Positions 631 to 18,561 of a DNA stretch of 64,000 nt are shown one piece after another. Every line of letters begins with the position of its first letter. The stretch's first letter is position 1. Origin of the DNA: TPA_inf: Saccharomyces (lineage: Eukaryota); NCBI GenBank assembly GCA_000146045.2, contig BK006937.2, positions 1 to 64,000 of the forward strand, given 5' to 3'. The notes beneath the pieces are model-generated. The model was given only the letters and a program-made list of their open reading frames with translations. It searched no databases and was not told where the DNA came from. Both the position numbers and the translations under genes were made by a program.

Positions 631-1100
631 TCTACAAATGATCGTAAATAATACACATATACTTATCCTACCACTCTAATCCCACTACCACATGCCATAC
701 TCACCTTCACTTGTATTCTGATCGGTCATACGCACACGGATGCTACAGTATATACCATCTCAAACTTACCCTACTTTCATATTCCACTCCATCACCCATC
801 TCTCACCATCAGTACCAAATGCACTCGCATCATTATGCACGGCACTTGCCTCAGCGGTCTATACCCTGTGCCATTTACGCATAACGCCCATCATTATCCA
901 CATTTTAATATCTATATCTCATTCGGCGACACCAAATATTGTATAACTGCCCTTAATACATACGTTATACCACTTTTACACCATATACTAACCACTCAAT
1001 TTATACACACTTATGTCAATATAACCACAAAATCACCACTAAAATCACCTAAACATAAAAATATTCTACTCTTCAACAATAATACATAAACACACTCAAT
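631..1100. repeat. X element core with ARS consensus and putative Abf1 site
   Basis: An 11/11 ACS match, TAAACATAAAA on the + strand (reverse complement TTTTATGTTTA), lies at 1050-1060. A match to the Abf1 consensus RTCRYNNNNNACG (ATCATTATGCACG) lies at 829-841. Both sit directly proximal to telomere repeats, as in core X. Confidence 0.5.
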
Positions 1101-1178
1101 TGCGTATCTATACCACCATGACGTCATTAACGTAAAAGTTCCTTAATATTGCAAATTGCTTGAACGGATGCCATTTCA

Positions 1179-1429
1179 TGTTGAATGTGGTAACCCAATA
1201 GCATGATATGAGTAATGCTTTAGTATTGTTTCAGAGTTGTTTCAGTAATGTTTTAGACAAGGAGAACATATAGTAGCAAACCTCTAATCCGGTAGTACTT
1301 AAGAAACTACAGTTTCTATGTACGAAAGCAGTAACTATGTAATTATTACATTTACATGACATATAGGAAGGTCCAATAAACTTACTACATTATGACCTAT
1401 AAGCTAGATCGTAATTCATTACGTCAACA
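1179..1429 (+). repeat. Ty5 5' LTR
   Basis: Direct repeat partner of 4073-4322. I count roughly 10% divergence by eye. It has TG...CA termini. Confidence 0.8.
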
Positions 1430-2135
1430 GGTTATGAGCCCTCAGAGCAATGCTTCTGAGAACATAATCAATCTATCTAGCCCCAACAATTATAAACAGT
1501 GGCTGTACGGTATCGAGACCGCTGCTGAATATGCTAACGAATATATGAACGAATTCGTTCATACCGGAGATATCCAATCAATGAAAAGGGATTACAATCT
1601 CAGCGCGAATGATGAAAGCTTTGTCAAAACCGTATTTAACAGTTTCCTGGTAAAGCTCTACAAGAAAACTATCGTGGGTGAAGCTGCATGTGAAATGAAC
1701 TGGATATGTGATGATTCGCTTGGAAGGGTCTCTGCTTATGATATTTTCTCGCACTTCGAAGAAAACTATAATGAAGTCACTATTGGATCCAGGCTTACTC
1801 TTATAGAGGACCTACCAAATATATCCTCCAAGCCTGTAGATGAAATTGCTTCCTTTTTGAAAACTCTATTCACGATGCTTGAAGACAATAGCGAAGAACA
1901 GGACAAAAAAAAAAGACGCGACACCAATATCGCGTTGTTATTAATGACCTTCTTACCCGAGTTAAAAGAATCATTCCACGAGAAATTCGGTGACTCTAAG
2001 GCTCTTCAGCTATCACAAGTCATTAGATTCTGTAAATTAAATGCGTCATCGAATTCATCATCTTCGGTCTCAGATGCATTGGTTGCACAAGACAGAAGAA
2101 ACTATCAAAAGAAAGGAAATAAGGGATGTATATAA
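1392..2135 (+). pseudogene. Ty5 Gag-like fragment (YCL076W-type pseudogene ORF)
   Basis: The ORF starts inside the 5' LTR and is hydrophilic with a basic tail. It is separated from the next frame by a frameshift. Confidence 0.6.
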
Positions 2136-2566
2136 TTTACGGAGCTGATCATCGCATAAGCAACTGTTCTCTGCTTAAACGAAGAATACCAGAAGCACGA
2201 ATCTTTAAATTATATCCTAATGACAAAACGAGTAGATCTTCATCTGCTAGTGTCGCGATTCCTGACTATGAAACGCAAGGCCAAACAGCAGGACAGATAA
2301 CACCGAAGTCCTGGCTCTGTATGTTATCTTCGACTGTTCCAGCTACCAAATCCTCAGAATGGATTTTTGACACAGGATGTACTTCCCACATGTGCCACGA
2401 CCGTTCCATTTTTTCATCATTTACTAGATCCTCTAGGAAAGACTTTGTCAGAGGAGTTGGCGGTTCCATACCCATCATGGGCTCCGGAACTGTAAACATT
2501 GGCACTGTTCAATTACATGACGTATCTTACGTTCCTGATTTACCAGTTAACCTGATATCCGTTTGA
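2126..2566 (+). pseudogene. Ty5 Pol fragment (protease region; YCL075W-type pseudogene ORF)
   Basis: It overlaps the previous ORF in a different frame. It carries a D(T/S)G-like motif, IFDTGCTSHM, typical of a retroviral aspartyl protease. Confidence 0.6.
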
Positions 2567-2823
2567 AAACTATGCACTAAATCAAACTCTTCTGTTACGT
2601 TCACAAAAGAGGGTGTCACTGTGCAATCACCTGATGATGTGGTTTCTACAGCTGGGTATTCACAATAAAAGACTCTGGGAAGTACAAAGCTCGCCTTGTC
2701 GCCCAAGGACATACTCAAAAGGCTGGTATTGACTATCAGGAAACCTTTGCACCAGTCATTCGATATGACTCTGTTAGATTATTTCTGGCCCTTGCTAGCT
2801 GCCTCAAACTAATAGTATATCAG

Positions 2824-3750
2824 ATGGACGTTGACACTGCGTTTCTAAACTCAACCATGGATGAGCCGATCTACGTAAAACAACCACCCGGGTTTGTTAA
2901 CGAGAGGAATCCCGACTATGTATGGGAACTATACGGCGGTATGTATGGACTCAAACAAGCCCCATTACTATGGAACGAACATATCAACAATACTCTTAAA
3001 AAGATTGGTTTCTGTCGACATGAAGGCGAACATGGCTTATATTTTCGTTCCACATCTGATGGTCCCATCTACATTGCCGTATACGTAGACGACTTACTTG
3101 TTGCTGCTCCCTCTCCTAAAATATATGACAGGGTTAAGCAAGAATTAACGAAATTATACTCAATGAAGGATCTCGGTAAAGTTGACAAATTCCTCGGTCT
3201 TAACATTCATCAATCGTCAAACGGAGACATCACTCTCTCCCTTCAAGACTATATTGCTAAAGCTGCATCTGAAAGCGAAATAAACACATTTAAACTTACA
3301 CAGACTCCGCTCTGCAACTCAAAGCCTCTTTTCGAAACAACTTCCCCGCATCTAAAAGACATCACTCCTTATCAGAGCATAGTTGGTCAGCTTCTCTTTT
3401 GTGCAAATACTGGTCGTCCGGACATATCGTATCCAGTCTCATTACTCTCCAGGTTCCTTCGAGAACCTCGCGCAATCCATTTGGAGTCTGCTCGGCGGGT
3501 TCTACGGTACCTATATACCACCAGAAGTATGTGTCTCAAGTATCGTTCTGGATCTCAGTTGGCATTAACTGTATATTGTGATGCATCTCATGGAGCTATT
3601 CACGATCTACCACACTCTACTGGGGGGTACGTGACTCTACTTGCTGGTGCTCCCGTTACGTGGTCATCGAAGAAGCTCAAGGGTGTGATTCCTGTACCAT
3701 CTACTGAGGCAGAATACATTACTGCAAGTGAAACTGTCATGGAGATATAA
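2824..3750 (+). pseudogene. Ty5 Pol fragment, reverse transcriptase (YCL074W-type pseudogene ORF)
   Basis: It has the IAVYVDDLLVAAP (YVDD) RT active-site motif and copia-type RT context. Confidence 0.75.
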
Positions 3751-3762
3751 TGGATTCAAAAC

Positions 3763-4041
3763 TTGTTTGAACACTTAGGCCAGCCACTTATCTCATCAAC
3801 ATCATATGTAGATAATAAACCTGCTATAAAACTGTCTAAACATCCTGTATTTCACACGAGAGCAAAACACATTGCTTTGAGATACCACAAGCTAAGAAAT
3901 GCAGTGGCAGCAGGCATAATTACCATAGAACATGTTATCACAAAGAAACAAGTTGCTGACATATTTACAAAAATCCTTCCAGCTGAATCATTTAAAACAC
4001 ATAGGGCTGTCATGATAAGGGAACCAGAAACTACAAAATAA
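3763..4041 (+). pseudogene. Ty5 Pol C-terminal (RNase H) fragment
   Basis: A short ORF ends just before the PPT and 3' LTR. The motif ADIFTK is typical of copia RNase H C-termini. Confidence 0.5.
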
Positions 4042-4072
4042 CCATACTCATGCGTATTCAGTTATGGGGGGA

Positions 4073-4322
4073 TGTTAAATGTGGTAACCTAATAGCATGA
4101 TATGAGTAATGCTTTAGTATTGTTTCAGAGTTGTTTCAGTAATGTTTTAGACAAAGAAAACATATAATAGTAAACCTGTAATCAGGTAGTACTTAAGAAA
4201 CTATACTTTCTGTGTACAAAACACTAACTATGTAATTCTTACATTTACATAACATGTAGAAAGGTCCAATAAACTTACTATATTATGACATATAAGTTAG
4301 ATCGTAATTCACTACGTCAACA
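4073..4322 (+). repeat. Ty5 3' LTR
   Basis: Direct repeat partner of 1179-1429, preceded by a GGGGG polypurine tract. Confidence 0.8.
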
Positions 4323-6199
4323 TATCCCACGATAAAAAAAATACCTTGACTCAAGTGCCGAAACAGGAAATAATGAAAGATTTCATACAAGGTTGTTTCT
4401 AAGGTGCTATATGTCCCTACGGCCTCGTTTAGCCCCATCTCGCATGCAATACCGTAACATAGGTATATACACACAGAGAAGTAGTAATTTTACGTGTCTT
4501 ATACTTATTTTATATAGAAATGTCCGACACTTGCGCTACACTAAGGCATATAAGATAGATCTTAATTCCTTGTATTAACATATAAACAGACAACATAACA
4601 TAGCCAGTTTATCTTACTTATCTTTTCCTGGAAGAGATGGCATTATTTGTGTGTATCAAAGAGGCCTTTTTCAATTTTCATTTTAATATTTTTTTAATAT
4701 TCTTATATTGAACACATTTTTCTCCCCTAGATTTATGTTTCCTATTGCTCTCCATATCACATTATATCTATGAATGAATATGCATTGCTCTTCTGATACT
4801 ATGGTATGAGAGGCCTTGGTAAAGGGCATCGATAACCGAAAGAATCATCCGCAGAGAAGTAGAATCTTAGAGCATATCGTCTCGTTGAGACCGTATAGAT
4901 TCGCAAAAATAACAGAAACTTGCGTTAACATTGAATTTCAAACTCAGTTTTCCATAATTAACTGTTAAAAAAGGCTACTATAAGGGTGTCAATTACTGTT
5001 CTGTTTCGCAGGATTAATTCCGTTATGTGCTCTTGTAATTGAGTTAGCGCTTCTTATATCTCTTCAGTAATGCAGCAGTAATAAAACACATTGGCTTCGC
5101 TTTCGCTTTTTTTCCAAATCATTATCGAAGATTCTTTGCTTATGATATACTGGTGCTCGAGGATGATGAGAGGACACAACTTTTTGAGGCTTATCGTTAT
5201 CGTCTGAGTCACAACAACATACATTAACTGTCCACGATTCAGGGATGTGCTATGAGTTCAATTTTCGCTGTAGTGCTGCCATTGGCGCTGCTACTGGTGT
5301 CTGGAAAAACTCCACAGCTTTCAATGGAGATGTGACTGCACGAGTGAGACATTATCTGTATTAGCTTCACAACCATACTCTGTTAGTAAGGAGCCATAGT
5401 CGACATCTGTCCAGCTCAATCGGGTATGATATTTGATATCCCCAAAATACATGGCTGTACCATGTAAAATGAGCGGTATATCGAAGATCAGTATATTTCA
5501 GCCTATACAGGATCCTACTATTTCAACAAAAATGATTTCATCAAAATTAAATCACGCTGCAACATTGGTGAAGAATCTCAAAAGGTTAGTAACATCAATA
5601 TATCGCGGAGTAGCTATCATTGTGGCAGTTAACTTAAAGGATATACAGTTAATTCAACAAGATTTTCAAGTCCATTTTTTTTGGGCACGCTGAACACGCT
5701 CAATGTAGTACTTGTTTTGGAAATCACTCGCAAGTTTAATGGGACGAATTATATCAGTAATGTGTAAATTCCGACACAATGTTCGGTTAGTAGATTTACT
5801 GCTGGATTATTGGGTTCACCCGTAGACTGTTGCCGACTCCAAGAAAACTATGATCTCAATACAGGCATAAAGAATTGTTGTATCTGTGCCCATGTGATCT
5901 GTACCTTTTTTGCGGTACCAAAATCGCATGTTGCACTCACACTACGGAACACATCAACTTGTAACGACAACAATACAAAATACCAGGAGACATATCACTT
6001 TTTTTCGCCTAGAATGATTTACAATGGCATACACTTAGAAAAGTGCTATGACATGACGCCCTTACTAGAAGTTACATGATTCTCCTTTTTTTTCTTTCTT
6101 TCTTTCTTTTTCGGTACAACATAATTAATGCATTCATACAGAGCGCATTTCCAGCATCATTTATTGGATAGTAACTCCTCCCGCACTTTCAATATCAAT

Positions 6200-6290
6200 G
6201 ACGCTGACTCTTTTACTGACGCTGAGTCTTTACCGACGCTGAGTCTTTACCGACGCTGAGTCTTTACCGACGCTGAGTCTTTACCGACGC
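6200..6290. repeat. Tandem minisatellite of about 5 copies of the 17-18 bp unit GACGCTGAGTCTTTACC
   Basis: Direct reading shows gacgctgactcttttact followed by four exact gacgctgagtctttacc copies. Confidence 0.9.
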
Positions 6291-6478
6291 TTGTGAAAAT
6301 AAAAAGTACGACACAGCTATATGCGTCGCAAGTTCAGATGTGGGTCTATCGAGCATGTTTATCCTATCCTGTTATGTCATTTTTATCGGAAGTAATAAAA
6401 GTGTAGAAATCACTTGTTTTTGCCTTTTTTGTGATTTTGCTTTCATTTTTTTTTGCCCTTTTTTCACCAGCTTGGGGA

Positions 6479-8326
6479 TCAACATCCTAATTTCTTGTTA
6501 CTTCGATTATGTCTAAAAAGTGCCTTGATTTGAGAGAAAATATTTTCCTCATCTGGCAAGACAACCAAACCATCTTCAGTGAATTCTTCGTGTGTCGCCT
6601 TGTCTATTAGTTCCGGGTCTCTCATGAACATTGTAAACGCAAAGAACGGTACCGTACATGCCAAGCCAACCGTCATTATTATTCGTTGAACATATCTGTA
6701 AGATTCAACCACAGCATCTCTTTCGGGTGAGCCCCAAGGATAATCACTAATGAATGTATAAGGTGATGCATATGCTATTTCTGCCAATGTATCGTTTCCA
6801 AGGTTCTTGTAGAGTTGGTTAGGCATGGTTTGTGTCCATATGGCACCAGAAACGGAGGCACCGATAGCAGCGCCTAGCTTTGAAAAGGTATACTGGATGC
6901 CGGTTATTACAGCCATCCTACTATGCGTAGTCATGGCTTGCAGTATGACGATCACTGAATTGCTGCATAGGAGACCACTCAAACCCATGATAACAGATGC
7001 AGCGATAACACCTTCATGAGACCCAGATCCTCCTCTGTATTTGTAAAAAAGGCCCATGCACACCATCCATGCAGCACAACCTCCGATTACAGAAAGTTTC
7101 AGTTTCCTTGTCTTTGCCACCAACAAACTGTAGAATGGAGATGCAGTAGCAGCAACAAAGTCAGGAAGGTTTACTATCCGAGCAGCCGAAGTGGACGATT
7201 CTTTCATCGATACCAGCAAAACAGGATACAGATAGTCACACGAAATGAAAAAGGTGAAAAAATTGAAAAAAGTAACACCAAGGGGTGCCCAAATTCCACG
7301 ATCACTTAGTAATTTGAACGGTAGAAGAGGAGATTTGGCAAATTTGGCCTCCCAATATAAAAAAATGAAAAATAAACAGCCACCTGAAACTAAAGTGGCA
7401 ATTATTTTTGAATTGTGCCACTTCTGTGATGTCTCATTAGCCAACGTCAAAGGGACAAGGATACACCCTAGCGACACAGTTATTAATAATATGCCAACAA
7501 TATCGAGTTTCCAGAATAGAAACACCAAATTCTCAAATAATCCGCCCGTTCTTTCCTTTCTAGCCTGTTCTTTGAGAGATCTCCACTCAGCAGTCTTTGA
7601 AGATTTGTACTTCATATAAAGAATAAGAAATATAATTGGCAAGGCAGAGAGTGGGTAAATAAAAGCCCACATTGCAATATTCCAGGACCAGTTTTTCTGA
7701 GGATTTGCTGCTGTGATAATATTACCTGAAATCCATGGTATTATGATATATGGCCAATATGAGGCGTACTGGTAAAACATTCTCCACTTCAAGGAGGAGA
7801 AATCAGAAAGTATTAATGTCAGGAGCAGATTTGTTCCGACGTATCCACAGTTATAGAAAACCGATCCTGCTGCATACATTGTGAGACGGGTCGCCTGTGA
7901 TTGAATGATGGTTCCCATTATATAAAAAATAGTTGCAACTAAAAAAAGCCTTAGTCTTCCGAAGTGGTCAGAGAGTCTGGAGTAGACAACTTGGGATCCG
8001 ACACTTACAACAGCATTGATAACTTGGACAGTTGAAAGTAAGGAGTGTTCTGAATATGAGTTCGTCGCATAGCCCGTATAGGTCGATCTAAGTGTGTAGT
8101 CTAAACTAATTCCAAACCCACATACAAACGCGGTACTTATCAGTAGAATTTTATATTTCAAGGAATCAAACTGTGCAGACATAATTTCGTTTTCTTTGAG
8201 CTTAAAAAAGGTCGATGTCATAGAGTACGTGTCATCGTTTGAGTGACGTTCTCGCTCAATAATCTCACAGGACTGCCTAATTCCACTTTTTTTATTACTT
8301 GAGGCACCAACAACACTAGAACTCAT
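6479..8326 (-). CDS. GEX1: Major facilitator superfamily transporter, glutathione exchanger (ARN/siderophore-transporter-like)
   Basis: 615 aa with many predicted TM helices. The protein is recognised as Gex1, subtelomeric paralog of GEX2. Coordinates agree with my recollection of the reference. Confidence 0.9.
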
Positions 8327-9705
8327 CCGATAATTTATTTACTTGATTATTCCTTTTTTTTTTTTTTCTCTTTCCAGTCCATAAAACTATTTTACTTTTC
8401 TTATTTATGTAAATAGTATTTAAGATTCTACGGTCGCTACATCTGCTAGAAATGGAATTACTTTAATACATTCCATGTTCTCATATATACTTTTACTGAC
8501 ACCTTTCGTCACTATTTTTTGTTTAACTTTTTTTTTGGAAGTACTAAAATTATATGCTCGTAATTATTGAGTATCAAAAAAAAAAAAAAAAAAAATTGCT
8601 GTGACACCCCTTCAATGTGGTGTCTATACACCTGGTGACTTTAACTTTAACTTTGACCTGTCGTCGTACAATCAACTTAGTTTCCGAAAATCCACGACGA
8701 ACCAGTTATACCGAAGACTTTTGTACGACAAGAATACTGTACCGTCGAAACTATCTCTTTTCAAACTGATGAGTGAAGCTTGTGTTTATGTCTGTTGAAA
8801 CAAGGAAAAAAATGCGGTGCCTGTCGACAGGATATGCGCACAAGTGCAAAATCATCAAAAAATTGAGTACCTAGATCCGGTGGTGTAGGACGAGCAAAGT
8901 TCCTTCATAAACAAACCGTAAGGGTTACTGATACACAATTTCCTTTTTGTAAAGAGTATTTGAGCAAATTAGTCAGCGATTGAAAACAACACCCTTTTTT
9001 CTATATATAGTAGGTGAAAGTTAACATGCGAGTAAAAGTAGTGCCACATTTCCTTTGCAGCAGGTGCAAATTGGTACATATTTAACAGATAGCGCCGCAC
9101 CTCATATGCAGCGCGTACATGATACGAGACGACAAGATATGCAAAAGATAATAGTGTCATCACACCTTTATGAGAAGCGAATTTTTTTTTTTTTTTGGTT
9201 TAAATATATATATATACATATATATAGATATAGATATACACATGTATAGATGTATTCTAGTTATGCTTATACCTAGAACTGATCAGACCAGATCATACCT
9301 GGTATAGAGCTTAATCGATAGAAATTCAAAAATATGGAGGAAACTAAGTACTCTTCGCAGCAGGAGATAGAAGAAGCATGTGGTTCAGACGCTTCATTGA
9401 ATGCTAGAGGTAGCAATGATTCTCCAATGGGACTTTCCTTGTACCTCTGCCTGGCTTCGTGAACTCTTGTACTATTCATAACTGCACTGGATATTTTGAT
9501 AGTGGGAACTATTATTGACGTGGTCGCAGAACAGTTCGGAAACTACTCCAAAACAGGTTGGCTCGTTACAGGCTACAGTTTACCAAATGCTATTCTGAGT
9601 CTCATTTGGGGAAGATTCGCATCTATCATAGGTTTCCAGCATAGTCTCATTTTAGCAATACTTATTTTTGAAGCCGGATCCCTAATTGCTGCCCTTGCCT
9701 CTTCA

Positions 9706-11082
9706 ATGAATATGCTCATTGTCGGTAGAGTTGTTGCTAGTGTTGGGGGAAGCGGACTTCAAACGCTTTGCTTTGTTATTGGTTGTACGATGGTTGGTGA
9801 AAGGTCACGTCCATTGGTGATTTCCATCCTAAGTTGTGCATTTGCTGTAGCTGCTATCGTTGGTCCTATAATCGGAGGTGCCTTTACAACCCATGTTACC
9901 TGGAGGTGGTGCTTCTATATCAATCTTCCTATCGGTGGTCTTGCCATTATTATGTTTTTACTCACATATAAGGCCGAGAATAAGGGTATACTTCAACAAA
10001 TTAAAGATGCTATAGGAACAATCTCGAGCTTTACTTTTAGTAAGTTCAGACACCAAGTTAATTTTAAAAGACTTATGAATGGCATAATCTTCAAGTTTGA
10101 CTTCTTTGGTTTTGCCCTCTGCTCTGCAGGGCTGGTCCTTTTCCTACTGGGGCTAACCTTTGGTGGTAATAAATATAGTTGGAACTCTGGCCAAGTCATC
10201 GCATATTTGGTTTTGGGTGTCTTACTTTTTATTTTTTCATTGGTGTACGATTTCTTCTTATTCGATAAATTCAACCCGGAACCTGATAATATATCCTACA
10301 GGCCTCTCCTTCTAAGAAGATTGGTAGCAAAACCAGCCATAATAATAATAAACATGGTAACATTTCTATTATGTACCGGTTACAATGGGCAAATGATATA
10401 CTCTGTCCAGTTTTTCCAACTTATATTTGCGTCGAGTGCATGGAAAGCCGGTCTTCACTTGATACCAATCGTTATTACCAACGTTATTGCGGCCATTGCA
10501 AGTGGTGTGATTACCAAAAAGCTCGGTTTAGTTAAACCACTCTTAATATTTGGAGGCGTTCTTGGGGTAATTGGAGCAGGGCTTATGACACTTATGACAA
10601 ATACGTCCACGAAGTCAACTCAAATTGGTGTTTTGCTATTACCGGGGTTTTCCCTTGGATTTGCTCTACAAGCATCGCTCATGAGTGCACAGCTTCAAAT
10701 TACCAAAGATCGTCCAGAAGCTGCTATGGACTTTATTGAAGTAACAGCTTTCAATACATTCATGAAGTCATTAGGTACAACTCTTGGTGGTGTGCTTTCA
10801 ACCACTGTTTTTTCCGCCTCCTTTCACAACAAAGTATCACGAGCTCATCTAGAGCCTTACGAAGGAAAAACGGTTGATGACATGATTTTGTATCGTCTTC
10901 AAAACTACGACGGTTCTCATTCGACTATTGGAAACATTTTAAGCGACTCCATTAAGAACGTATTTTGGATGGATCTAGGGTTTTATGCCTTAGGATTTTT
11001 GTTTTGTAGTTTTTCATCCAATAAGAAATTAATCATACCAAAAAAGGACGAGACACCAGAAGATAATTTAGAAGACAAGTAG
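9706..11082 (+). CDS. VBA3: Vacuolar basic amino acid transporter (DHA2-type MFS), annotated short form. The frame is open upstream to 9463, with an upstream in-frame ATG at 9334 separated by one TGA.
   Basis: 458 aa from ATG 9706. The track ORF begins at a TTG at 9496. Upstream in-frame sequence encodes additional MFS helices. See findings. Confidence 0.8.
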   Translation: MNMLIVGRVVASVGGSGLQTLCFVIGCTMVGERSRPLVISILSCAFAVAAIVGPIIGGAFTTHVTWRWCFYINLPIGGLAIIMFLLTYKAENKGILQQIKDAIGTISSFTFSKFRHQVNFKRLMNGIIFKFDFFGFALCSAGLVLFLLGLTFGGNKYSWNSGQVIAYLVLGVLLFIFSLVYDFFLFDKFNPEPDNISYRPLLLRRLVAKPAIIIINMVTFLLCTGYNGQMIYSVQFFQLIFASSAWKAGLHLIPIVITNVIAAIASGVITKKLGLVKPLLIFGGVLGVIGAGLMTLMTNTSTKSTQIGVLLLPGFSLGFALQASLMSAQLQITKDRPEAAMDFIEVTAFNTFMKSLGTTLGGVLSTTVFSASFHNKVSRAHLEPYEGKTVDDMILYRLQNYDGSHSTIGNILSDSIKNVFWMDLGFYALGFLFCSFSSNKKLIIPKKDETPEDNLEDK

Positions 11083-11234
11083 CGCAGTTATTTTCTTATT
11101 TTCATTTTATTTTTTTCGCCTTTTATACAGACTTCAACACAATCAGAATCAAATAGGTGTATCGCAATGGAATGTAATTTCTTAAGTATTCTATATGTAC
11201 TTAAAACCTATTAATATATGGATCAACACAGTAT

Positions 11235-11270
11235 CTTATGAATGGGTTTTTGATTTTTTTATGTTTTTTT
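11235..11270. promoter_or_regulatory. Candidate HML-E silencer core: ACS (ARS301-like) plus degenerate Rap1-like site
   Basis: An 11/11 ACS match TTTTATGTTTT lies at 11257-11267. About 10 bp upstream, on the minus strand, AACCCATTCATAA is a 10/13 match to the Rap1 consensus ACACCCAYACAYY. The assignment is by position relative to HML. Confidence 0.45.
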
Positions 11271-11502
11271 AAAACATTAAAGTTTTCGGCACGGACTTAT
11301 TTGGAATTCAAATTATTAATGAAAGAACAATTAACTAATTAATGTACTTAGTATTTGGCCATTATTATCGATTTCGGGGGCCAAATCTAACCAAATTCAA
11401 CCTACATTTTTTCAAATTGATTCAAACACCTTTCACAATAAGATTTTTATATCTAGCGCACATAGAATGAAATGTAAACAAAGATTTCAGAAAAATCGTC
11501 AT

Positions 11503-12285
11503 TCAAACTTGTATTAGACGAGGGACGGAGTGATTTTTGTGTTTGTTTTTATTAATTGTGGGATAGGATAGTAGCAACTCTTGGAGGAGAGCATTGTCAG
11601 TTGTCCAGTCTCTGAAGTTAAGTAGTAAGTTTGCGGAGTCAAAGGGGGATGGCTTTTGCCATTTGTGAGAGTTGTGCGGCAGCATCTTATTCAAATAGAG
11701 CTGTATTCTGAAGACCTCTTGTAGAACATCATCCATACTAAAAAGTAAATCGTCCTGTCCCATTACGAGCTGTAGTAGTGCTGTGACCCTCTGTATATTT
11801 ACGTTGCCATGAAGAAGGTAATGGGCGATATTTTGATACAATTCCTGAGTTGCATGTTGGATTGAGTTTACGAAGGGTCGCCAGACGGCCAGAAACCTCC
11901 AGGCGGAGTTAACAACTAGTAATACGGCATCCATGTTTGCATCAGCGCCGAGCCTATACCAGTCACTGAGTAGACGTTTTCTTGCTCTTTTTATGTCCTG
12001 ACTTCTTTTGACGAGGGGGCATTCTCTAGAGACACAGGCAGTTGCTTCCAGCAACTGCCGTACGGCCGTTCTCATGCTGTCGAGGATTTTTTTTGGGACG
12101 ATATTGTCATTATAGGGCAGTGTGTGACTTATGAATTGTTGTAGAAGGACGTCTGTGATGTTGGAGATATGTATTTTGTTAACTCTTCTTGAGACAATTT
12201 GGCCCTGGATAGCGAAGCGTGCGGTTACAAATAGGTCGTCTTGTTCAAGAAGGTAGGCGAGGACATTATCTATCAGTACAAACAT
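11503..12285 (-). CDS. BUD5-related ORF lying in the W/X homology region shared with MAT-proximal sequence (YCL068C-type)
   Basis: 260 aa from the internal Met MFVLIDNVLAYLLEQDD. The track ORF is longer (303 aa). It is recognised as the HML-proximal partial duplicate of the gene that flanks MAT. Confidence 0.6.
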   Translation of the reverse strand: MFVLIDNVLAYLLEQDDLFVTARFAIQGQIVSRRVNKIHISNITDVLLQQFISHTLPYNDNIVPKKILDSMRTAVRQLLEATACVSRECPLVKRSQDIKRARKRLLSDWYRLGADANMDAVLLVVNSAWRFLAVWRPFVNSIQHATQELYQNIAHYLLHGNVNIQRVTALLQLVMGQDDLLFSMDDVLQEVFRIQLYLNKMLPHNSHKWQKPSPFDSANLLLNFRDWTTDNALLQELLLSYPTINKNKHKNHSVPRLIQV

Positions 12286-12385
12286 CTTAGTAGTGTCTGA
12301 GGAGAGGGTTGATTGTTTATGTATTTTTGCGAAATATATATATATATATATTCTACACAGATATATACATATTTGTTTTTCGGGC

Positions 12386-13018
12386 TCATTCTTTCTTCTT
12401 TGCCAGAGGCTCACCGCTCAAGAGGTCCGCTAATTCTGGAGCGATTGTTATTGTTTTTTCTTTTCTTCTTCTATTCGAAACCCAGTTTTTGATTTGAATG
12501 CGAGATAAACTGGTATTCTTCATTAGATTCTCTAGGCCCTTGGTATCTAGATATGGGTTCTCGATGTTCTTTGCAAACCAACTTTCTAGTATTCGGACAT
12601 TTTCTTTTGTAAACCGGTGTCCTCTGTAAGGTTTAGTACTTTTGTTTATCATATCTTGAGTTACCACATTAAATACCAACCCATCCGCCGATTTATTTTT
12701 CTGTGTAAGTTGATAATTACTTCTATCGTTTTCTATGCTGCGCATTTCTTTGAGTAATACAGTAATGGTAGTAGTGAGTTGAGATGTTGTTTGCAACAAC
12801 TTCTTCTCCTCATCACTAATCTTACGGTTTTTGTTGGCCCTAGATAAGAATCCTAATATATCCCTTAATTCAACTTCTTCTTCTGTTGTTACACTCTCTG
12901 GTAACTTAGGTAAATTACAGCAAATAGAAAAGAGCTTTTTATTTATGTCTAGTATGCTGGATTTAAACTCATCTGTGATTTGTGGATTTAAAAGGTCTTT
13001 AATGGGTATTTTATTCAT
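12386..13018 (-). CDS. HMLALPHA2: Silenced copy of the alpha2 homeodomain repressor
   Basis: 210 aa, [13 protein letters not shown]...; homeodomain [42 protein letters not shown]. Confidence 0.95.
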
Positions 13019-13281
13019 TTTTTCTTGCTTATCTTCCTTTTTTTCTTGCCCACTTCTAAGCTGATTTCAATCTCTCCTTTATATATATTTTTAAGTTCCA
13101 ACATTTTATGTTTCAAAACATTAATGATGTCTGGGTTTTGTTTGGGATGCAATTTATTGCTTCCCAATGTAGAAAAGTACATCATATGAAACAACTTAAA
13201 CTCTTAACTACTTCTTTTAACCTTCACTTTTTATGAAATGTATCAACCATATATAATAACTTAATAGACGACATTCACAAT

Positions 13282-13809
13282 ATGTTTACTTCGAAGCCTG
13301 CTTTCAAAATTAAGAACAAAGCATCCAAATCATACAGAAACACAGCGGTTTCAAAAAAGCTGAAAGAAAAACGTCTAGCTGAGCATGTGAGGCCAAGCTG
13401 CTTCAATATTATTCGACCACTCAAGAAAGATATCCAGATTCCTGTTCCTTCCTCTCGATTTTTAAATAAAATCCAAATTCACAGGATAGCGTCTGGAAGT
13501 CAAAATACTCAGTTTCGACAGTTCAATAAGACATCTATAAAATCTTCAAAGAAATATTTAAACTCATTTATGGCTTTTAGAGCATATTACTCACAGTTTG
13601 GCTCCGGTGTAAAACAAAATGTCTTGTCTTCTCTGCTCGCTGAAGAATGGCACGCGGACAAAATGCAGCACGGAATATGGGACTACTTCGCGCAACAGTA
13701 TAATTTTATAAACCCTGGTTTTGGTTTTGTAGAGTGGTTGACGAATAATTATGCTGAAGTACGTGGTGACGGATATTGGGAAGATGTGTTTGTACATTTG
13801 GCCTTATAG
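13282..13809 (+). CDS. HMLALPHA1: Silenced copy of the alpha1 transcriptional co-activator
   Basis: 175 aa, MFTSKPAFKIKNK.... It is divergent from alpha2 with a 263 bp shared promoter region. The HO site lies within its 3' part. Confidence 0.95.
   Translation: MFTSKPAFKIKNKASKSYRNTAVSKKLKEKRLAEHVRPSCFNIIRPLKKDIQIPVPSSRFLNKIQIHRIASGSQNTQFRQFNKTSIKSSKKYLNSFMAFRAYYSQFGSGVKQNVLSSLLAEEWHADKMQHGIWDYFAQQYNFINPGFGFVEWLTNNYAEVRGDGYWEDVFVHLAL
13691..13718 (+). other. HO endonuclease recognition site at the Yalpha/Z1 junction
   Basis: The sequence CGCAACAGTATAATTTTATAAACCCTGG is the canonical MAT-alpha HO site. Confidence 0.85.
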
Positions 13810-14119
13810 AGTGTGGTCGTGGCGGAGGTTGTTTATCTTTCGAGTACTGAATGTTGTCAGTATAGCTATCCTATTTGAAACTCCCCATCGTCTTGCTCTT
13901 GTTCCCAATGTTTGTTTATACACTCATATGGCTATACCCTTATCTACTTGCCTCTTTTGTTTATGTCTATGTATTTGTATAAAATATGATATTACTCAGA
14001 CTCAAGCAAACAATCAAAGAAATCTTTCACTGCTCTTTTCTGTGTTCCATTTAGTTTTTAGTACGATTGCATTGTCTATATACTGTATTTACCAAATCTT
14101 AATTTTAGTCAAACATTAA
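13751..14119 (+). CDS. Dubious ORF overlapping the alpha1 3' end and the Z region (YCL065W-type)
   Basis: 122 aa with Cys/Leu-rich low complexity. It overlaps a real gene and silencer-proximal DNA and is probably not a gene. Confidence 0.2.
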   Translation: MLKYVVTDIGKMCLYIWPYRVWSWRRLFIFRVLNVVSIAILFETPHRLALVPNVCLYTHMAIPLSTCLFCLCLCICIKYDITQTQANNQRNLSLLFSVFHLVFSTIALSIYCIYQILILVKH

Positions 14120-14599
14120 TGTTTACTTTCGTATTTAAGGATGTGTATACTAAGCCTTGGGAAAATGCGTGTTCCTTGTGCCATCCGAAAGCTACTTCAT
14201 AAAAAAGATACTGTTCATTTTCAAGCCCGCATAGTTGGATCAAATATTAACTATATATCAACATGGTCCAAAGATCGTAAGTTTGGTCTAATGTTGTTTT
14301 AGCAAAAAAAAATACTATACCTTTCATTAACGTTTATTGAATTTCTTGAAAAAAAAACCCTAAATTATTATAAAATTATAGCAGGATAGTTCTTAGTGGA
14401 AGATATTAAGCAAACTATTTTCTGAATTGCTATGCGAAATTTCTCTAATGCCAGCTGAGTAACTAACTCTCATGGTACATAAAAATACGCATCTTAAAAA
14501 ATTTGATATTTCATGATTTATTTATAGAAATAACGATGCTTATTGTGCTTTGTTGGGTGTTTGACTTCTATGTTAACTTACTTCAACATGAAAGCCCGA

Positions 14600-14711
14600 C
14601 GTTTGCAATGATATCCTCTTTTTCACCCGATTATTTTCATTTATTAGTAAGTGGGGTTCTGGGTGAAAAAATCAAAACAAAAATATGAATTTGTAATGAT
14701 TTTTATATTTT
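14600..14711. promoter_or_regulatory. Candidate HML-I silencer: Abf1 consensus match plus ACS (ARS302-like)
   Basis: CGTTTGCAATGAT at 14600-14612 matches CGTNNNNNRYGAY. TTTTATATTTT at 14701-14711 is an 11/11 ACS match. Both lie at the expected distal edge of HML. Confidence 0.45.
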
Positions 14712-15797
14712 CGCCGGAGGTGCTGGAAATGGCAAACGAAAATACTATGACATAAAAGCTGGGCACACTATGTACGTTCTTTTTAATTTTTTATCAACAT
14801 GAGAAAAATTCATGAACACTGTACCTTATATTATCTAATAAATGAAGTAAGCTTTGCATCTCCGTAACAGCTGCATATATATAATTAAGCGGGAGCTTTC
14901 TTTCGATCTCTTTCATTCCATATGTTTATTATGTACTGATGAAAAGCATTTTACTAAGTTGAGGTCTCTGTAAGTATATTGTGACCATTATGCTAAAATA
15001 CTGGGGTCTTCATTTGTGTCAAATTCTACGTAATAGTTCCCCTTTTTCTTACATTTTTATACTAAAGAGTTACGGTATTTATACAAACGAGGGGCTTTAC
15101 TGTAATATATGATTAAGATTCAAGCTGAAACATTCTAAGTTAGAGGTATAAAATGATTATTGATGAAAGAGCTGCAAATGTCGGCAAAATATAAATACCT
15201 TAGATGTTACCAGCTGGGAAGATTATTACGGAACACATTCTTATAAATCTATAGGAATACATAGGATTGTATTTCTATTGACAAAGTACAACCTATATTT
15301 TATGTTATGTTATGTTATGTTTGCTATGACTATAGTTGCTTTTCTTCACTTAGTAAGGATTAACTAACTCTCGAGCTAGTAAATTTGACGTGAGAAGCAT
15401 AATTATATTACTAATAGAACGATATCTGGTGTGTTTTATTACAGACTGCACTGAGTGTTAGAGGTAGAAATTATAAGTTAAAAAGCAGTAGTTTATGCTT
15501 TATGCTCGAGTATCAAGTGAATTTGAACAGGCTAGTGCTTCATTGGTACTTCTTTCATGGATAATTTTGAGCAAATTTCTGCAGCATGTCCCCCTTTATA
15601 CAAATTCTGTGCATTGCCGGCCTAGAAATATGTCAACGTTTTGGATATGTTGATGCTTACTTCGAGAAATCTTACACTAATACTTCTGGAAAAAATCAAT
15701 ACTAGCAAAATAGTGATATATGAGTAAAATGTATGTAGTACATGTATGAAAATTATCAAGGGCAAATTGATGCTTCAACGAAAAAGTTATTGGATTT

Positions 15798-16880
15798 TCA
15801 AGCACTTTTTAAATTCACAATATTTTTTTCTGGAAATATGAAATTGTCAGCGACTTCTATTACAGGAGTGTCTTTTTTTCTCATGCTATCCAACGCTTCT
15901 TCCAAGTCCTTTATAGTATTAGAGGAGCCGCCACAAGCAATAATTATCACAATGTCATCCGCAGCTAATTTTGAGCCCAGTGCATTTTCTAGGATCTTAG
16001 TGTTGTAACCCAAATGCAATGCGGCGCCACATGCCGGTTCAATCACCATATTGAATTGATGTGTATATTTAAGACAGGTTTCAATAACATCTTTGTCCTC
16101 TATTACAACGGATCTGGTGTTGTATTTGCGAGCGTATTCGAAAGTTTGATTAGAGATCACGGCCGTTCCTAGAGAAGTAGCAATACTTGTTATCTTCTTG
16201 AATTGAACTGGTTGGCCTATTTTCAAAGAAGTATTGAAAACATGACATCCATTCGTTTCCACCCCCACAATAGGGATCCTATCAGCTAAACCATACCTTT
16301 CCAAACCTTGAATAATACCATTGTATAAACCACCTCCACCAACGCTGCATACTATGCCTTTAACCTTATTCACGGAAATATGTTGCGATTTCAAATCTTG
16401 TACTATTTCATCTATCATAGATGAATGTCCTTCCCAAATATCCGGATTATCGAAGGGATGAACATAAATGGGCTCAATGACCTGAGAGTCTATTTTATTC
16501 ATGACATTTGTTTTTAAAAAAGTATCTGCTTCTTTCCAGTAGGCACCACTCACGATAACCTGGGCACCGGTGTTCCTGATTTTATCTACCATTCTCTTCT
16601 TTGTCGCTGTAGGAACCACGACTGTACATGGTAGAGACAGTCTTTGACATGCTGTTGCAGCAGCAAAACCGGCATTACCGCCAGAACTAGCGAAAACCTG
16701 AGGAGATCTTTTACCGTCCTTTTGAATTCGAATGGCACTTTTCATGATGAGATTACCGATTCCTCTACTTTTGAAGGAGCCACTTGGTTGAAGGCATTCA
16801 TATTTCAAGAAAAATTGTGCAGAAGCCTTTCCGGGGAAGAATTGACGTAATAATGGTGTTTTATTGTAGACTATCGACAT
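15798..16880 (-). CDS. CHA1: Catabolic L-serine/L-threonine deaminase (PLP-dependent)
   Basis: 360 aa from MSIVYNKTPLL. The PLP-lysine motif SGSFKSRG and a glycine-rich GGGGL loop are present. The track ORF has 13 extra N-terminal codons. Confidence 0.95.
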   Translation of the reverse strand: MSIVYNKTPLLRQFFPGKASAQFFLKYECLQPSGSFKSRGIGNLIMKSAIRIQKDGKRSPQVFASSGGNAGFAAATACQRLSLPCTVVVPTATKKRMVDKIRNTGAQVIVSGAYWKEADTFLKTNVMNKIDSQVIEPIYVHPFDNPDIWEGHSSMIDEIVQDLKSQHISVNKVKGIVCSVGGGGLYNGIIQGLERYGLADRIPIVGVETNGCHVFNTSLKIGQPVQFKKITSIATSLGTAVISNQTFEYARKYNTRSVVIEDKDVIETCLKYTHQFNMVIEPACGAALHLGYNTKILENALGSKLAADDIVIIIACGGSSNTIKDLEEALDSMRKKDTPVIEVADNFIFPEKNIVNLKSA

Positions 16881-17289
16881 CTCGCTGGTTAATTTTCCTG
16901 TCTCTTGTCTATCCAGCACTTAAAAAAGAGAAAACTGTATAAACATTTTCCTTTTATTTGGCGATATTTATATACCTGTGTTCCTCCTCATATTGTCCCT
17001 TTTATCTTATCTCATCGCAAACAATTTGATAAAGCTTTGGCACTATTTAATGACACTCAGTGGAATTACATTTCCGCTGGGGCTTAACAGGAGCCGCCCA
17101 TGCGGAATCATGTCTCCGCGCAGAGGACTCATTAGTTTCCGTTCGCGGTGATTAGTACTCGCGAAAAGAGAAAAAGAAAAATAGTAGGAACATTTCGCAA
17201 TTGATCAAAATGTAAACAGTGCAGTAAAGAATGGGACCATAAGATAGATAAGAAACAGCTCGCATAAGGAAACAAGGACACATCGATTA

Positions 17290-18561
17290 ATGGCAACCCA
17301 AGCCCTAGAGGATATCACGGAGAGGCTTTTAATAAGGTCGCAAGAGGCTATCTTGCAATTAGATCTGTGGATACAACGTCAGCAGAGATCATCAATATGC
17401 CAGACAACAGATCAAGAGTCATTGGATAAGTTATCCCAACAGTACAACCAGTATATGTCTCAACTGAACTCTTTGTATGTTAGATCGGAATCTGTTCGAG
17501 ACAAGTTGAGCAAGGAACAACAACGCAGATTGATCACAGAGGATAATGAGCATCAACGCATAGAAGACTTGGTTCGTGAATTCCAGGATATCACTTTGAG
17601 GTTGAACGAGCTGGCCACCGTCCCAAATGAAGCGCCTAATGATTCTCCACAATCGCAATCCACCAGAAGTAGTTTAGGGTCATTTCAACCTCGACCATTG
17701 AAAATAATTGAGAGGCAACGTCTGTGTATGGTAACTCCATCGAAACCACCAAAAAAATCGGTAGGCTTTAACCCCATCAATGAAGTCGATTGTCCTTCGA
17801 AAACTAACTCTTTACCGTGCTCACCTAAAAAACAACCTGCAAGAAATCGCACTTTACGTGCAGCCAAATCACATGATACTGGCTTGAACAAAAGTAAGAA
17901 ACCGTCTTCCTCGGATACGTATGAGTCTTTCTTCAAAAATAGACAAAGACTTTCGTTGACCTTCTTTGATGAAATGGATGATGAAGATTTTGATTCTGAT
18001 CAAGATACTATCATTCTACCAAACATAAGTACCCCTCCACATGTTGGTGTGACCGCAAAGGGTGCTGAATTCGAACCTTTAAGGAGATATAACTCTCACG
18101 AAAGTATACTATCTAACAAACCAGCACCTTCTAAGTCGCTCAATCTGGGAAGTTTCTCCGCCTCATTCTTCAGGCCATCTAATCCGACGTTTGGAACTTC
18201 GATATCAAATGTCCAAGTGAACTGTCATCCAACTGTTGCAGCGACAATGGCTCCTAGTCGTAATGGTCCTCGTATTTCAAGTTCTAAGGCGTTGTTATCA
18301 TCATTCATTGCACGATCAGATACACATACGGTAAAAGAGAACAACACAAATCTTAAGCATGCATCTTTTATGGATAAGTTTAATTCATCGTTAAGCACAA
18401 TATCAGAATCTTTTCAAAGTAAGAGGGGGAGAAAGAATAAGGGCATGAATGAAGAACGAATATCAAATCATAATGTAGCACAGGAACAAAAAAATAATAT
18501 GGATATAAGCGTCTCTATAGAAGAATTGCAAGATGCTTTGAATACAGAACTGCTGTTTTAA
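17290..18561 (+). CDS. VAC17: Vacuole-specific Myo2 receptor / vacuole inheritance adaptor
   Basis: 423 aa, MATQALEDITERLLIRSQEA.... It is Ser/Pro-rich and PEST-like, and is recognised from sequence. Confidence 0.9.
   Translation: MATQALEDITERLLIRSQEAILQLDLWIQRQQRSSICQTTDQESLDKLSQQYNQYMSQLNSLYVRSESVRDKLSKEQQRRLITEDNEHQRIEDLVREFQDITLRLNELATVPNEAPNDSPQSQSTRSSLGSFQPRPLKIIERQRLCMVTPSKPPKKSVGFNPINEVDCPSKTNSLPCSPKKQPARNRTLRAAKSHDTGLNKSKKPSSSDTYESFFKNRQRLSLTFFDEMDDEDFDSDQDTIILPNISTPPHVGVTAKGAEFEPLRRYNSHESILSNKPAPSKSLNLGSFSASFFRPSNPTFGTSISNVQVNCHPTVAATMAPSRNGPRISSSKALLSSFIARSDTHTVKENNTNLKHASFMDKFNSSLSTISESFQSKRGRKNKGMNEERISNHNVAQEQKNNMDISVSIEELQDALNTELLF

Follow-up and report, generated by a model that had tools for sequence, protein, structure and literature searches.

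VBA3 (YCL069W) is carried near one end of a 64,000-nucleotide stretch of DNA, termed the window throughout, which is the left end of Saccharomyces cerevisiae chromosome III in the reference (S288C) lineage; dense C1-3A-type telomeric repeats (CACACCCA and similar) at positions 1–360 mark the chromosome end itself. Analysis of the VBA3 reading frame indicates, with a probability that we place at about 0.92, that the gene is present here as a nonsense allele, specific to this lineage, of a gene that is otherwise intact and whose 582 codons encode a 14-helix major facilitator superfamily (MFS) transporter of the DHA2 type, that it is a young paralogue of VBA5, and that the allele is most likely a strong loss of function.

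The frame is opened by an ATG at 9334 lying in A-rich surroundings (AAAAATATGG) and is read for 42 sense codons (MEETKYSSQQEIEEACGSDASLNARGSNDSPMGLSLYLCLAS), which are the same as the N-terminus of intact alleles, single-nucleotide polymorphisms between strains aside. It is interrupted only once, by a TGA at 9460–9462 (codon 43), downstream of which 81 sense codons (9463–9705) lead in frame into the ATG at 9706, and from there the frame stays open up to the TAG at 11080–11082. The full stretch, 9334–11082, comprises 1749 nucleotides, that is 582 codons and the terminal stop. The translation from 9706 is on record in exactly this form as the 458-amino-acid S288C protein NP_009864.1, described as 'basic amino acid transporter / Vacuolar basic amino acid transporter 3'. 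Direct reading of the window reproduces both the coordinates and the translation given by a first-pass annotation of this DNA, made from the sequence alone, and its wider proposal that a single in-frame stop splits a 582-codon DHA2-type MFS open reading frame (ORF) is borne out by the sequence, the allele comparison, Pfam and a structure model.

The disruption of VBA3 is already known from the work of Dias and Sa-Correia (BMC Genomics 2013;14:901, PMC3890622), who reported that, among the VBA3/VBA5 homologues, an extra N-terminal peptide is lacking only from S288C VBA3 and from one contig-end fragment, and found the peptide still encoded upstream of VBA3. In their Additional file 10 this translation, 'MEETKYSSQQ...CLAS*TLVLFITALD...', is set in an alignment against Vba5p and a YJM789 orthologue that has leucine at that place. 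The same paper cites Shimazu et al. 2012 for the description of Vba5p as Vba3p with five substitutions and a further 124 residues at the N-terminus, as well as for the proposal that the N-terminal piece sets plasma-membrane localization. In the literature on YCL069W/VBA3 searched for a stop codon, pseudogene, nonsense or truncation, no treatment beyond PMC3890622 was found. The additions made here are modest and consist of the DNA-level cause (TTA>TGA at 9461), syntenic confirmation on chromosome III in several complete assemblies, the placement of the stop and of Met125 on a 14-helix model, the substitution G136S, the count of upstream AUGs and the read-through context. The features concerned are collected in Table 1.

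Table 1. Coordinates of the VBA3 frame and of associated features in the window
Feature	Position	Strand	Remarks
Codons 1–42 of the ancestral ORF	9334–9459	+	Unstructured N-terminal tail and first third of helix 1; in the reference strain a 42-codon upstream ORF
Premature stop TGA, codon 43	9460–9462	+	T>G transversion at 9461; ancestral TTA (Leu)
Codons 44–124	9463–9705	+	Rest of helix 1, helix 2, motif-A-like loop (WGRFASIIG), helix 3; not annotated as coding in the reference strain
Annotated VBA3 (YCL069W) coding sequence, 458 amino acids	9706–11082	+	Codons 125–582 and TAG; helices 4–14 only
G136S (G12S in 458-amino-acid numbering)	9739	+	A instead of G; helix 4, MFS motif B region, G-R-V-x-A-G-x-G-G
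Antisense ORF, 68 codons	9273–9479	-	Mechanical ORF; overlaps the VBA3 frame in its 5' part
Segmental duplication shared with the chromosome XI right end (GEX2-VBA5)	689–11225		Whole of VBA3, its 5' region and 143 base pairs past the stop

Allele comparison and origin of the stop codon

Related loci were fetched as DNA and compared with the window base by base. Codon 43 is TTA (Leu) in all fourteen non-reference alleles compared and TGA in the window, the lesion being one T>G transversion. Of the TTA alleles, seven occupy the syntenic locus on chromosome III and five are copies of VBA5, four of which are confirmed as lying on chromosome XI; the other two are short, unassignable contigs. A locus was assigned to chromosome III where it runs on into YCL068C-like genes and those of HML, or into sequence unique to that chromosome. 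Four of the seven (L006, from GCA_029991875.1; L011, from strain YJM1252; L001; L017) carry the fully intact 582-codon ORF against which the stop in the window is premature, and L012, L015 and L016 are likewise chromosome III loci with TTA at codon 43. The neighbors in L006 are a GEX1-like gene, a 260-amino-acid YCL068C-like gene, HML alpha2 and alpha1, a CHA1-like gene and VAC17. Intact alleles of this kind (GCA_029991875.1, GCA_029990965.1, YJM1252) agree with the window in having a GEX1-like gene upstream and YCL068C-like and HML alpha2/alpha1 genes downstream, and are 95.8–99.6% identical to it in DNA over the parts compared, but they differ from it in TTA at codon 43, GGT (Gly) at codon 136 and a 582-amino-acid product.

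The paralogue lies in a subtelomeric block, listed as the duplication YKR105C/YCL069W (PMC2728529), and comparison of the chromosome XI locus L007 with the window by blastn gave 96.4% identity over 689–11225, where the homology ends. VBA5 (YKR105C) resembles VBA3 in having the same 582-codon frame and the same 124 N-terminal residues, and the coding region of the window differs from the chromosome XI copies compared at about 10 of 1749 bases. Unlike reference VBA3, it has TTA at codon 43 and Gly136 and thus encodes the full 14-helix protein; it is then followed by an NFT1-type ABC transporter gene, whereas VBA3 is followed by YCL068C and HML. Three VBA5 copies (L007, L008, L009) continue into this ABC transporter gene, in L007 together with a flocculin in place of HML, and in L002 the similarity to the window breaks off at the 11225 boundary. 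The end of L003 resembles that of L002 and matches the VBA5 side, the product of L010 is the same VBA5 protein although its contig stops short of unique flanking sequence, and L004 and L005 are too short for assignment to either locus; codon 43 is TTA in all of these. Leucine also occupies position 43 in S. paradoxus (P0134), S. eubayanus (P0003) and more distant relatives, and the position is hydrophobic (L, V, I, C, M or A) in 118 of 118 full-length homologues.

In this small sample, with leucine in the outgroup species, TGA is confined to the window and two further sequences. One of them, L014, comes from an independent long-read assembly and shows the VBA3 region of the window without change, the five differences found over 7.4 kilobases all lying at 7633–8254, outside VBA3. 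The other, L013 (CP111106.1; window 6738–17981), is recognized as a synthetic yeast chromosome of reference derivation from its three loxPsym sites, one of them (about window 9066) lying upstream of the ancestral start, and from the replacement of the VBA3 stop TAG by TAA; the HML region is missing from it, and both the codon-43 TGA and G136S are kept. Judged by these comparisons, the stop is to be read as a derived, lineage-restricted nonsense mutation and neither as a sequencing error nor as a conserved feature. A strain-specific sense codon at 9460 had been offered by the first-pass annotation as an alternative, together with an alignment to VBA5 and to the alleles of other strains, and that alternative proved correct: S288C VBA5 has Leu at position 43 (PMC3890622 Additional file 10) and TTA stands in every one of the fourteen alleles fetched.

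A second change accompanies the stop. At 9739 every other allele compared has G, only L013 and L014 sharing the A of the window, and the helix-4 segment around residue 136 is otherwise G-R-V-V-A-G-V-G-G. Gly136 is invariant in all 118 homologues (the invariant column G136 of alignment A1), and its replacement by serine would probably impair even the annotated short protein. The private changes of the window among the alleles compared are these two, L43stop and G136S, both non-synonymous and both at strongly conserved sites, which fits relaxed constraint after inactivation, two sites being too few for a statistical claim.

Single-base length differences were seen in some of the chromosome III loci. 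L012 has one extra T in a T5 run (insertion at window 9664), by which the VBA3 gene is split, L016 has one extra T in another T5 run (insertion at window 10225) giving a VBA3 frameshift, and in L015 some ten single-base indels lie clustered (window 10566–10937), in the manner typical of an unpolished long-read assembly. Recurrent natural inactivation of VBA3, considered on account of P0128 (469 amino acids), P0131 (311 amino acids) and the split L012 gene, was not accepted, as such indels may be assembly errors and are indistinguishable from real frameshifts. The idea that the stop is widespread because 458-amino-acid 'Vba3p' entries exist in other strains was also rejected, YJM1252 having TTA and the intact ORF.

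Protein fold and the segment removed by truncation

The un-annotated 81-residue stretch between the TGA and the ATG at 9706 is not a chance open frame, because by itself it scores 37.4 bits with the Pfam family MFS_1 (E 1.8e-9; profile positions 3–82), above the curated cut-off of 33.4. The match of the 458-amino-acid annotated protein to MFS_1 begins only at profile position 87, and 9334–11082 read through with the stop as X matches from profile position 3 (E 2.1e-38), with a further match to TRI12 (E 6.7e-9). The translation of 9463–9705 is 100% identical to Vba5p residues 44–124, and in the alignment with the 118 full-length homologues it contains the family-invariant residues D53, W76, G80, G100, F112, E113, G115 and S116. 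Of the family-invariant residues D53 (helix 1), G100 (motif A region), R132 and G136 (both helix 4), the first three are encoded in the window; D53 and G100, however, precede the annotated start, and at G136 the window has serine. The first-pass annotation had described this stretch as canonical MFS helices with a G-R motif, of which the homology to the N-termini of relatives stands; the motif (W92-G93-R94...G100) is the family's degenerate MFS motif A between helices 2 and 3 and not the canonical one.

The fold was modeled with AlphaFold2 (AF2) on the intact allele P0001, which is 99% identical to the window (predicted local distance difference test score, pLDDT, 86.2; predicted template modeling score, pTM, 0.86). 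The model has 14 long helices, at 34–68, 71–99, 101–120, 125–153, 159–187, 197–211, 257–276, 286–313, 334–364, 377–397, 401–418, 427–454, 463–504 and 531–559, with which the hydropathy peaks agree, and its residues 1–27 are of low confidence. Codon 43 falls within helix 1 and Met125 is the first residue of helix 4. On this model the annotated 458-amino-acid product would be an 11-helix fragment without helices 1–3, half of the N-terminal bundle, and the earlier suggestion that the annotated protein lacks its first transmembrane helices is upheld by both AF2 and Pfam, which set these helices upstream of Met125.

The intact product is a 14-helix DHA2-type MFS transporter. The top Protein Data Bank matches to the P0001 model in Foldseek were EmrB, QacA, MHAS2168, EfpA and NorC, ahead of 12-helix MFS proteins, and these structural matches fit the published placement of Vba3 and Vba5 in the DHA2 group (PMC3890622). 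For EmrB (8zal), QacA (7y58), EfpA (8ufd/8x6x) and NorC (7d5p) the Foldseek E-values range from 5.5e-15 to about 1e-9, and the template modeling scores are 0.73–0.78 (by target length) over 530–555 columns, the 14-helix MFS architecture being held in common in spite of a sequence identity of only 16–22%. Unlike the bacterial DHA2 exporters, the yeast proteins contain additional short helices in a long cytoplasmic loop (residues 219–254), and they are reported as basic amino acid transporters and not as drug exporters (PMC3890622, PMC4021133).

Translation of the interrupted frame and residual function

The T>G change at 9461 turned Leu43 of helix 1 into TGA, and annotators took the next long ORF, from Met125. 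On an mRNA starting upstream of 9334, scanning ribosomes would meet AUG 9334 first and would stop after 42 codons, and an early stop in a long ORF should destabilize the mRNA through nonsense-mediated decay in yeast. Six AUGs precede 9706 (9334, 9378, 9401, 9416, 9427 and 9587); the base at -3 is A at ATG 9334, within the A-rich context, and T at ATG 9706. Making the 458-amino-acid form would require either that all six be bypassed or that a transcript start inside the gene, and its efficient synthesis from an mRNA starting upstream of 9334 is unlikely because of the six upstream AUGs and the T at -3 of 9706. The product would lack helices 1–3 and would also carry G136S at an invariant glycine. 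From the structure and this logic of translation, the reference allele is most likely a strong loss of function or pseudogene-like, possibly with residual or altered activity.

Nothing found speaks against the sequence facts themselves, but several observations weigh against this assessment of function. [quoted passage not shown] The loss-of-function reading is uncertain because deletions of the annotated ORF in the S288C background show such phenotypes, which suggests that the region 9706–11082 is not inert there; marker-cassette side effects at a subtelomeric locus adjoining HML may be an alternative source of them. In addition, the population sample amounts to seven non-reference chromosome III alleles, which is small, and a frequency of TGA is not derivable from it.

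The same phenotypes are what could favor a functional short isoform, in which the 458-amino-acid, 11-helix protein is made through an internal transcription start, leaky scanning or reinitiation and works as a vacuolar and not a plasma-membrane transporter. Reports place full-length Vba5p at the plasma membrane and Vba3p at the vacuole, with the N-terminal peptide proposed as the determinant of localization (PMC3890622), and Vba5p is reported to take up lysine and arginine (PMC3890622, PMC4021133). However, this protein would be without helices 1–3 of the six-helix N-terminal bundle and without the eight invariant residues encoded in 9463–9705, would have serine at the invariant Gly136, and would have to be initiated behind six AUGs at a start with a poor -3 base. 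The localization data presumably come from tagged constructs of the annotated ORF, and a cassette in the subtelomere may affect neighboring genes. On balance we regard a working short isoform as unlikely, the strong loss of function being the reading to which the structure and the translation logic point.

Programmed read-through of the TGA, by which the strain would still make the full-length 582-amino-acid transporter, was another alternative of the first-pass annotation and is far less probable still. UGA is the most read-through-permissive stop codon of yeast (PMC8087045), and the downstream frame is fully open. The read-through-promoting context looked for (UGA-C, A at -1 and -2, A at +5) is however absent, as UCG-UGA-ACU has a +4 A, which is low, and a -2 C and +5 C, which are the least permissive (PMC8087045 Table 2). 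The stop is moreover a sense codon in every other allele and species examined, and the openness of the downstream frame would follow simply from the mutation being recent. Conservation would be expected of a programmed read-through site. At UGA, near-cognate decoding puts in Trp, Cys or Arg, each of which would be non-native in helix 1, at a position hydrophobic in all homologues. With the stop not conserved and its context unfavorable, this alternative is not supported.

Single-base errors existed in early chromosome III sequence. That the TGA is such a sequencing or assembly error of the reference is nevertheless next to impossible, as the same base is found in the independent long-read L014 with its identical VBA3 region, in the synthetic-chromosome sequence L013 and in the version analyzed by Dias and Sa-Correia in 2013 (PMC3890622), and no support for an error was found.

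Annotation consequences and neighboring features

With VBA3 of the reference read as a nonsense allele, its name, 458-amino-acid length, localization and transport data describe a truncated allele of the laboratory lineage and not the gene of most strains. At least one strain with an intact gene has been given the short model, namely YJM1252 (L011 2629–4377, CP006335.2), for which a 458-amino-acid 'Vba3p' was deposited despite TTA and an uninterrupted 582-codon ORF; this model is carried over from the reference annotation and is an annotation artefact. It has also steered experiments, through the cassette and sequencing primers of a wine-yeast study and through the coding-sequence boundaries of the synthetic chromosome, in which 9706–11082 is treated as the coding sequence. 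Understanding of MFS transporters or of nonsense mutations is unchanged, the feature being ordinary in kind, and its value lies in annotation and in the re-reading of one allele effect. Laboratory S. cerevisiae has a general class of strain-specific nonsense alleles, in which ORFs are split or shortened by one stop and annotation follows the longest remaining ORF; going by this general knowledge, the one unusual thing about VBA3 is that its truncated ORF was functionally characterized and named as a whole gene.

The allele effect in question was reported by Gutierrez et al. 2013, in whose study reciprocal hemizygotes of the wine strain PDM and BY4741 differ on methionine, a difference ascribed to cis-regulatory variation, the 'ORF' sequences looking identical (PMC3691127). 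The primer sites of that study (PMC3691127 Table S1) map on the window at 9656–9705, 9697–9717, 11088–11138 and 11422–11442. The sequencing amplicon starts at 9697, 236 base pairs downstream of the nonsense site, and the stop at 9461 was missed. The arms of the deletion cassette (9656–9705 and 11088–11138) fall within the duplicated block and fit VBA5 just as well, the verification primer at 11422–11442 (reverse) being the only chromosome III-specific one. It is conceivable, although we hold it to be doubtful, that the TGA/TTA polymorphism at codon 43 together with G136S is the causal difference behind the PDM/BY4741 methionine effect. If so, the full-length and truncated forms would differ measurably in physiological effect, and the 'vacuolar Vba3p' of the reference would be a property of the truncated laboratory allele and not of the species' gene.

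As to the surroundings of the frame, no evidence that the minus-strand ORF at 9273–9479 is a gene was found, and it lies wholly opposite conserved VBA3 coding sequence. It is present as a mechanical ORF with nothing gene-like about it, as the first-pass annotation had supposed in calling it the mere antisense of the VBA3 N-terminal region. Aft-type iron-response sites (YRCACCCR), sought between GEX1 and VBA3 to locate a working promoter, were absent from 8000–9334, the matches of the scan being the telomeric repeats and three distant sites.

The GEX-type neighbor varies among the loci compared. In L007 5806–7246 (chromosome XI, GCA_030036375.1) it is called in two pieces of 242 and 227 amino acids instead of 615 amino acids, and in L014 1–1516 it is called as 580 amino acids; such variation may come from assembly errors or from additional subtelomeric transporter alleles that are disrupted. 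Downstream of VBA3, immediately beyond the block duplicated between chromosomes III and XI, the window has a 303-codon ORF with a GTG start on the minus strand (11503–12414), and in other strains a 260-amino-acid gene without a Pfam hit is called at this position, between VBA3 and HML alpha2.

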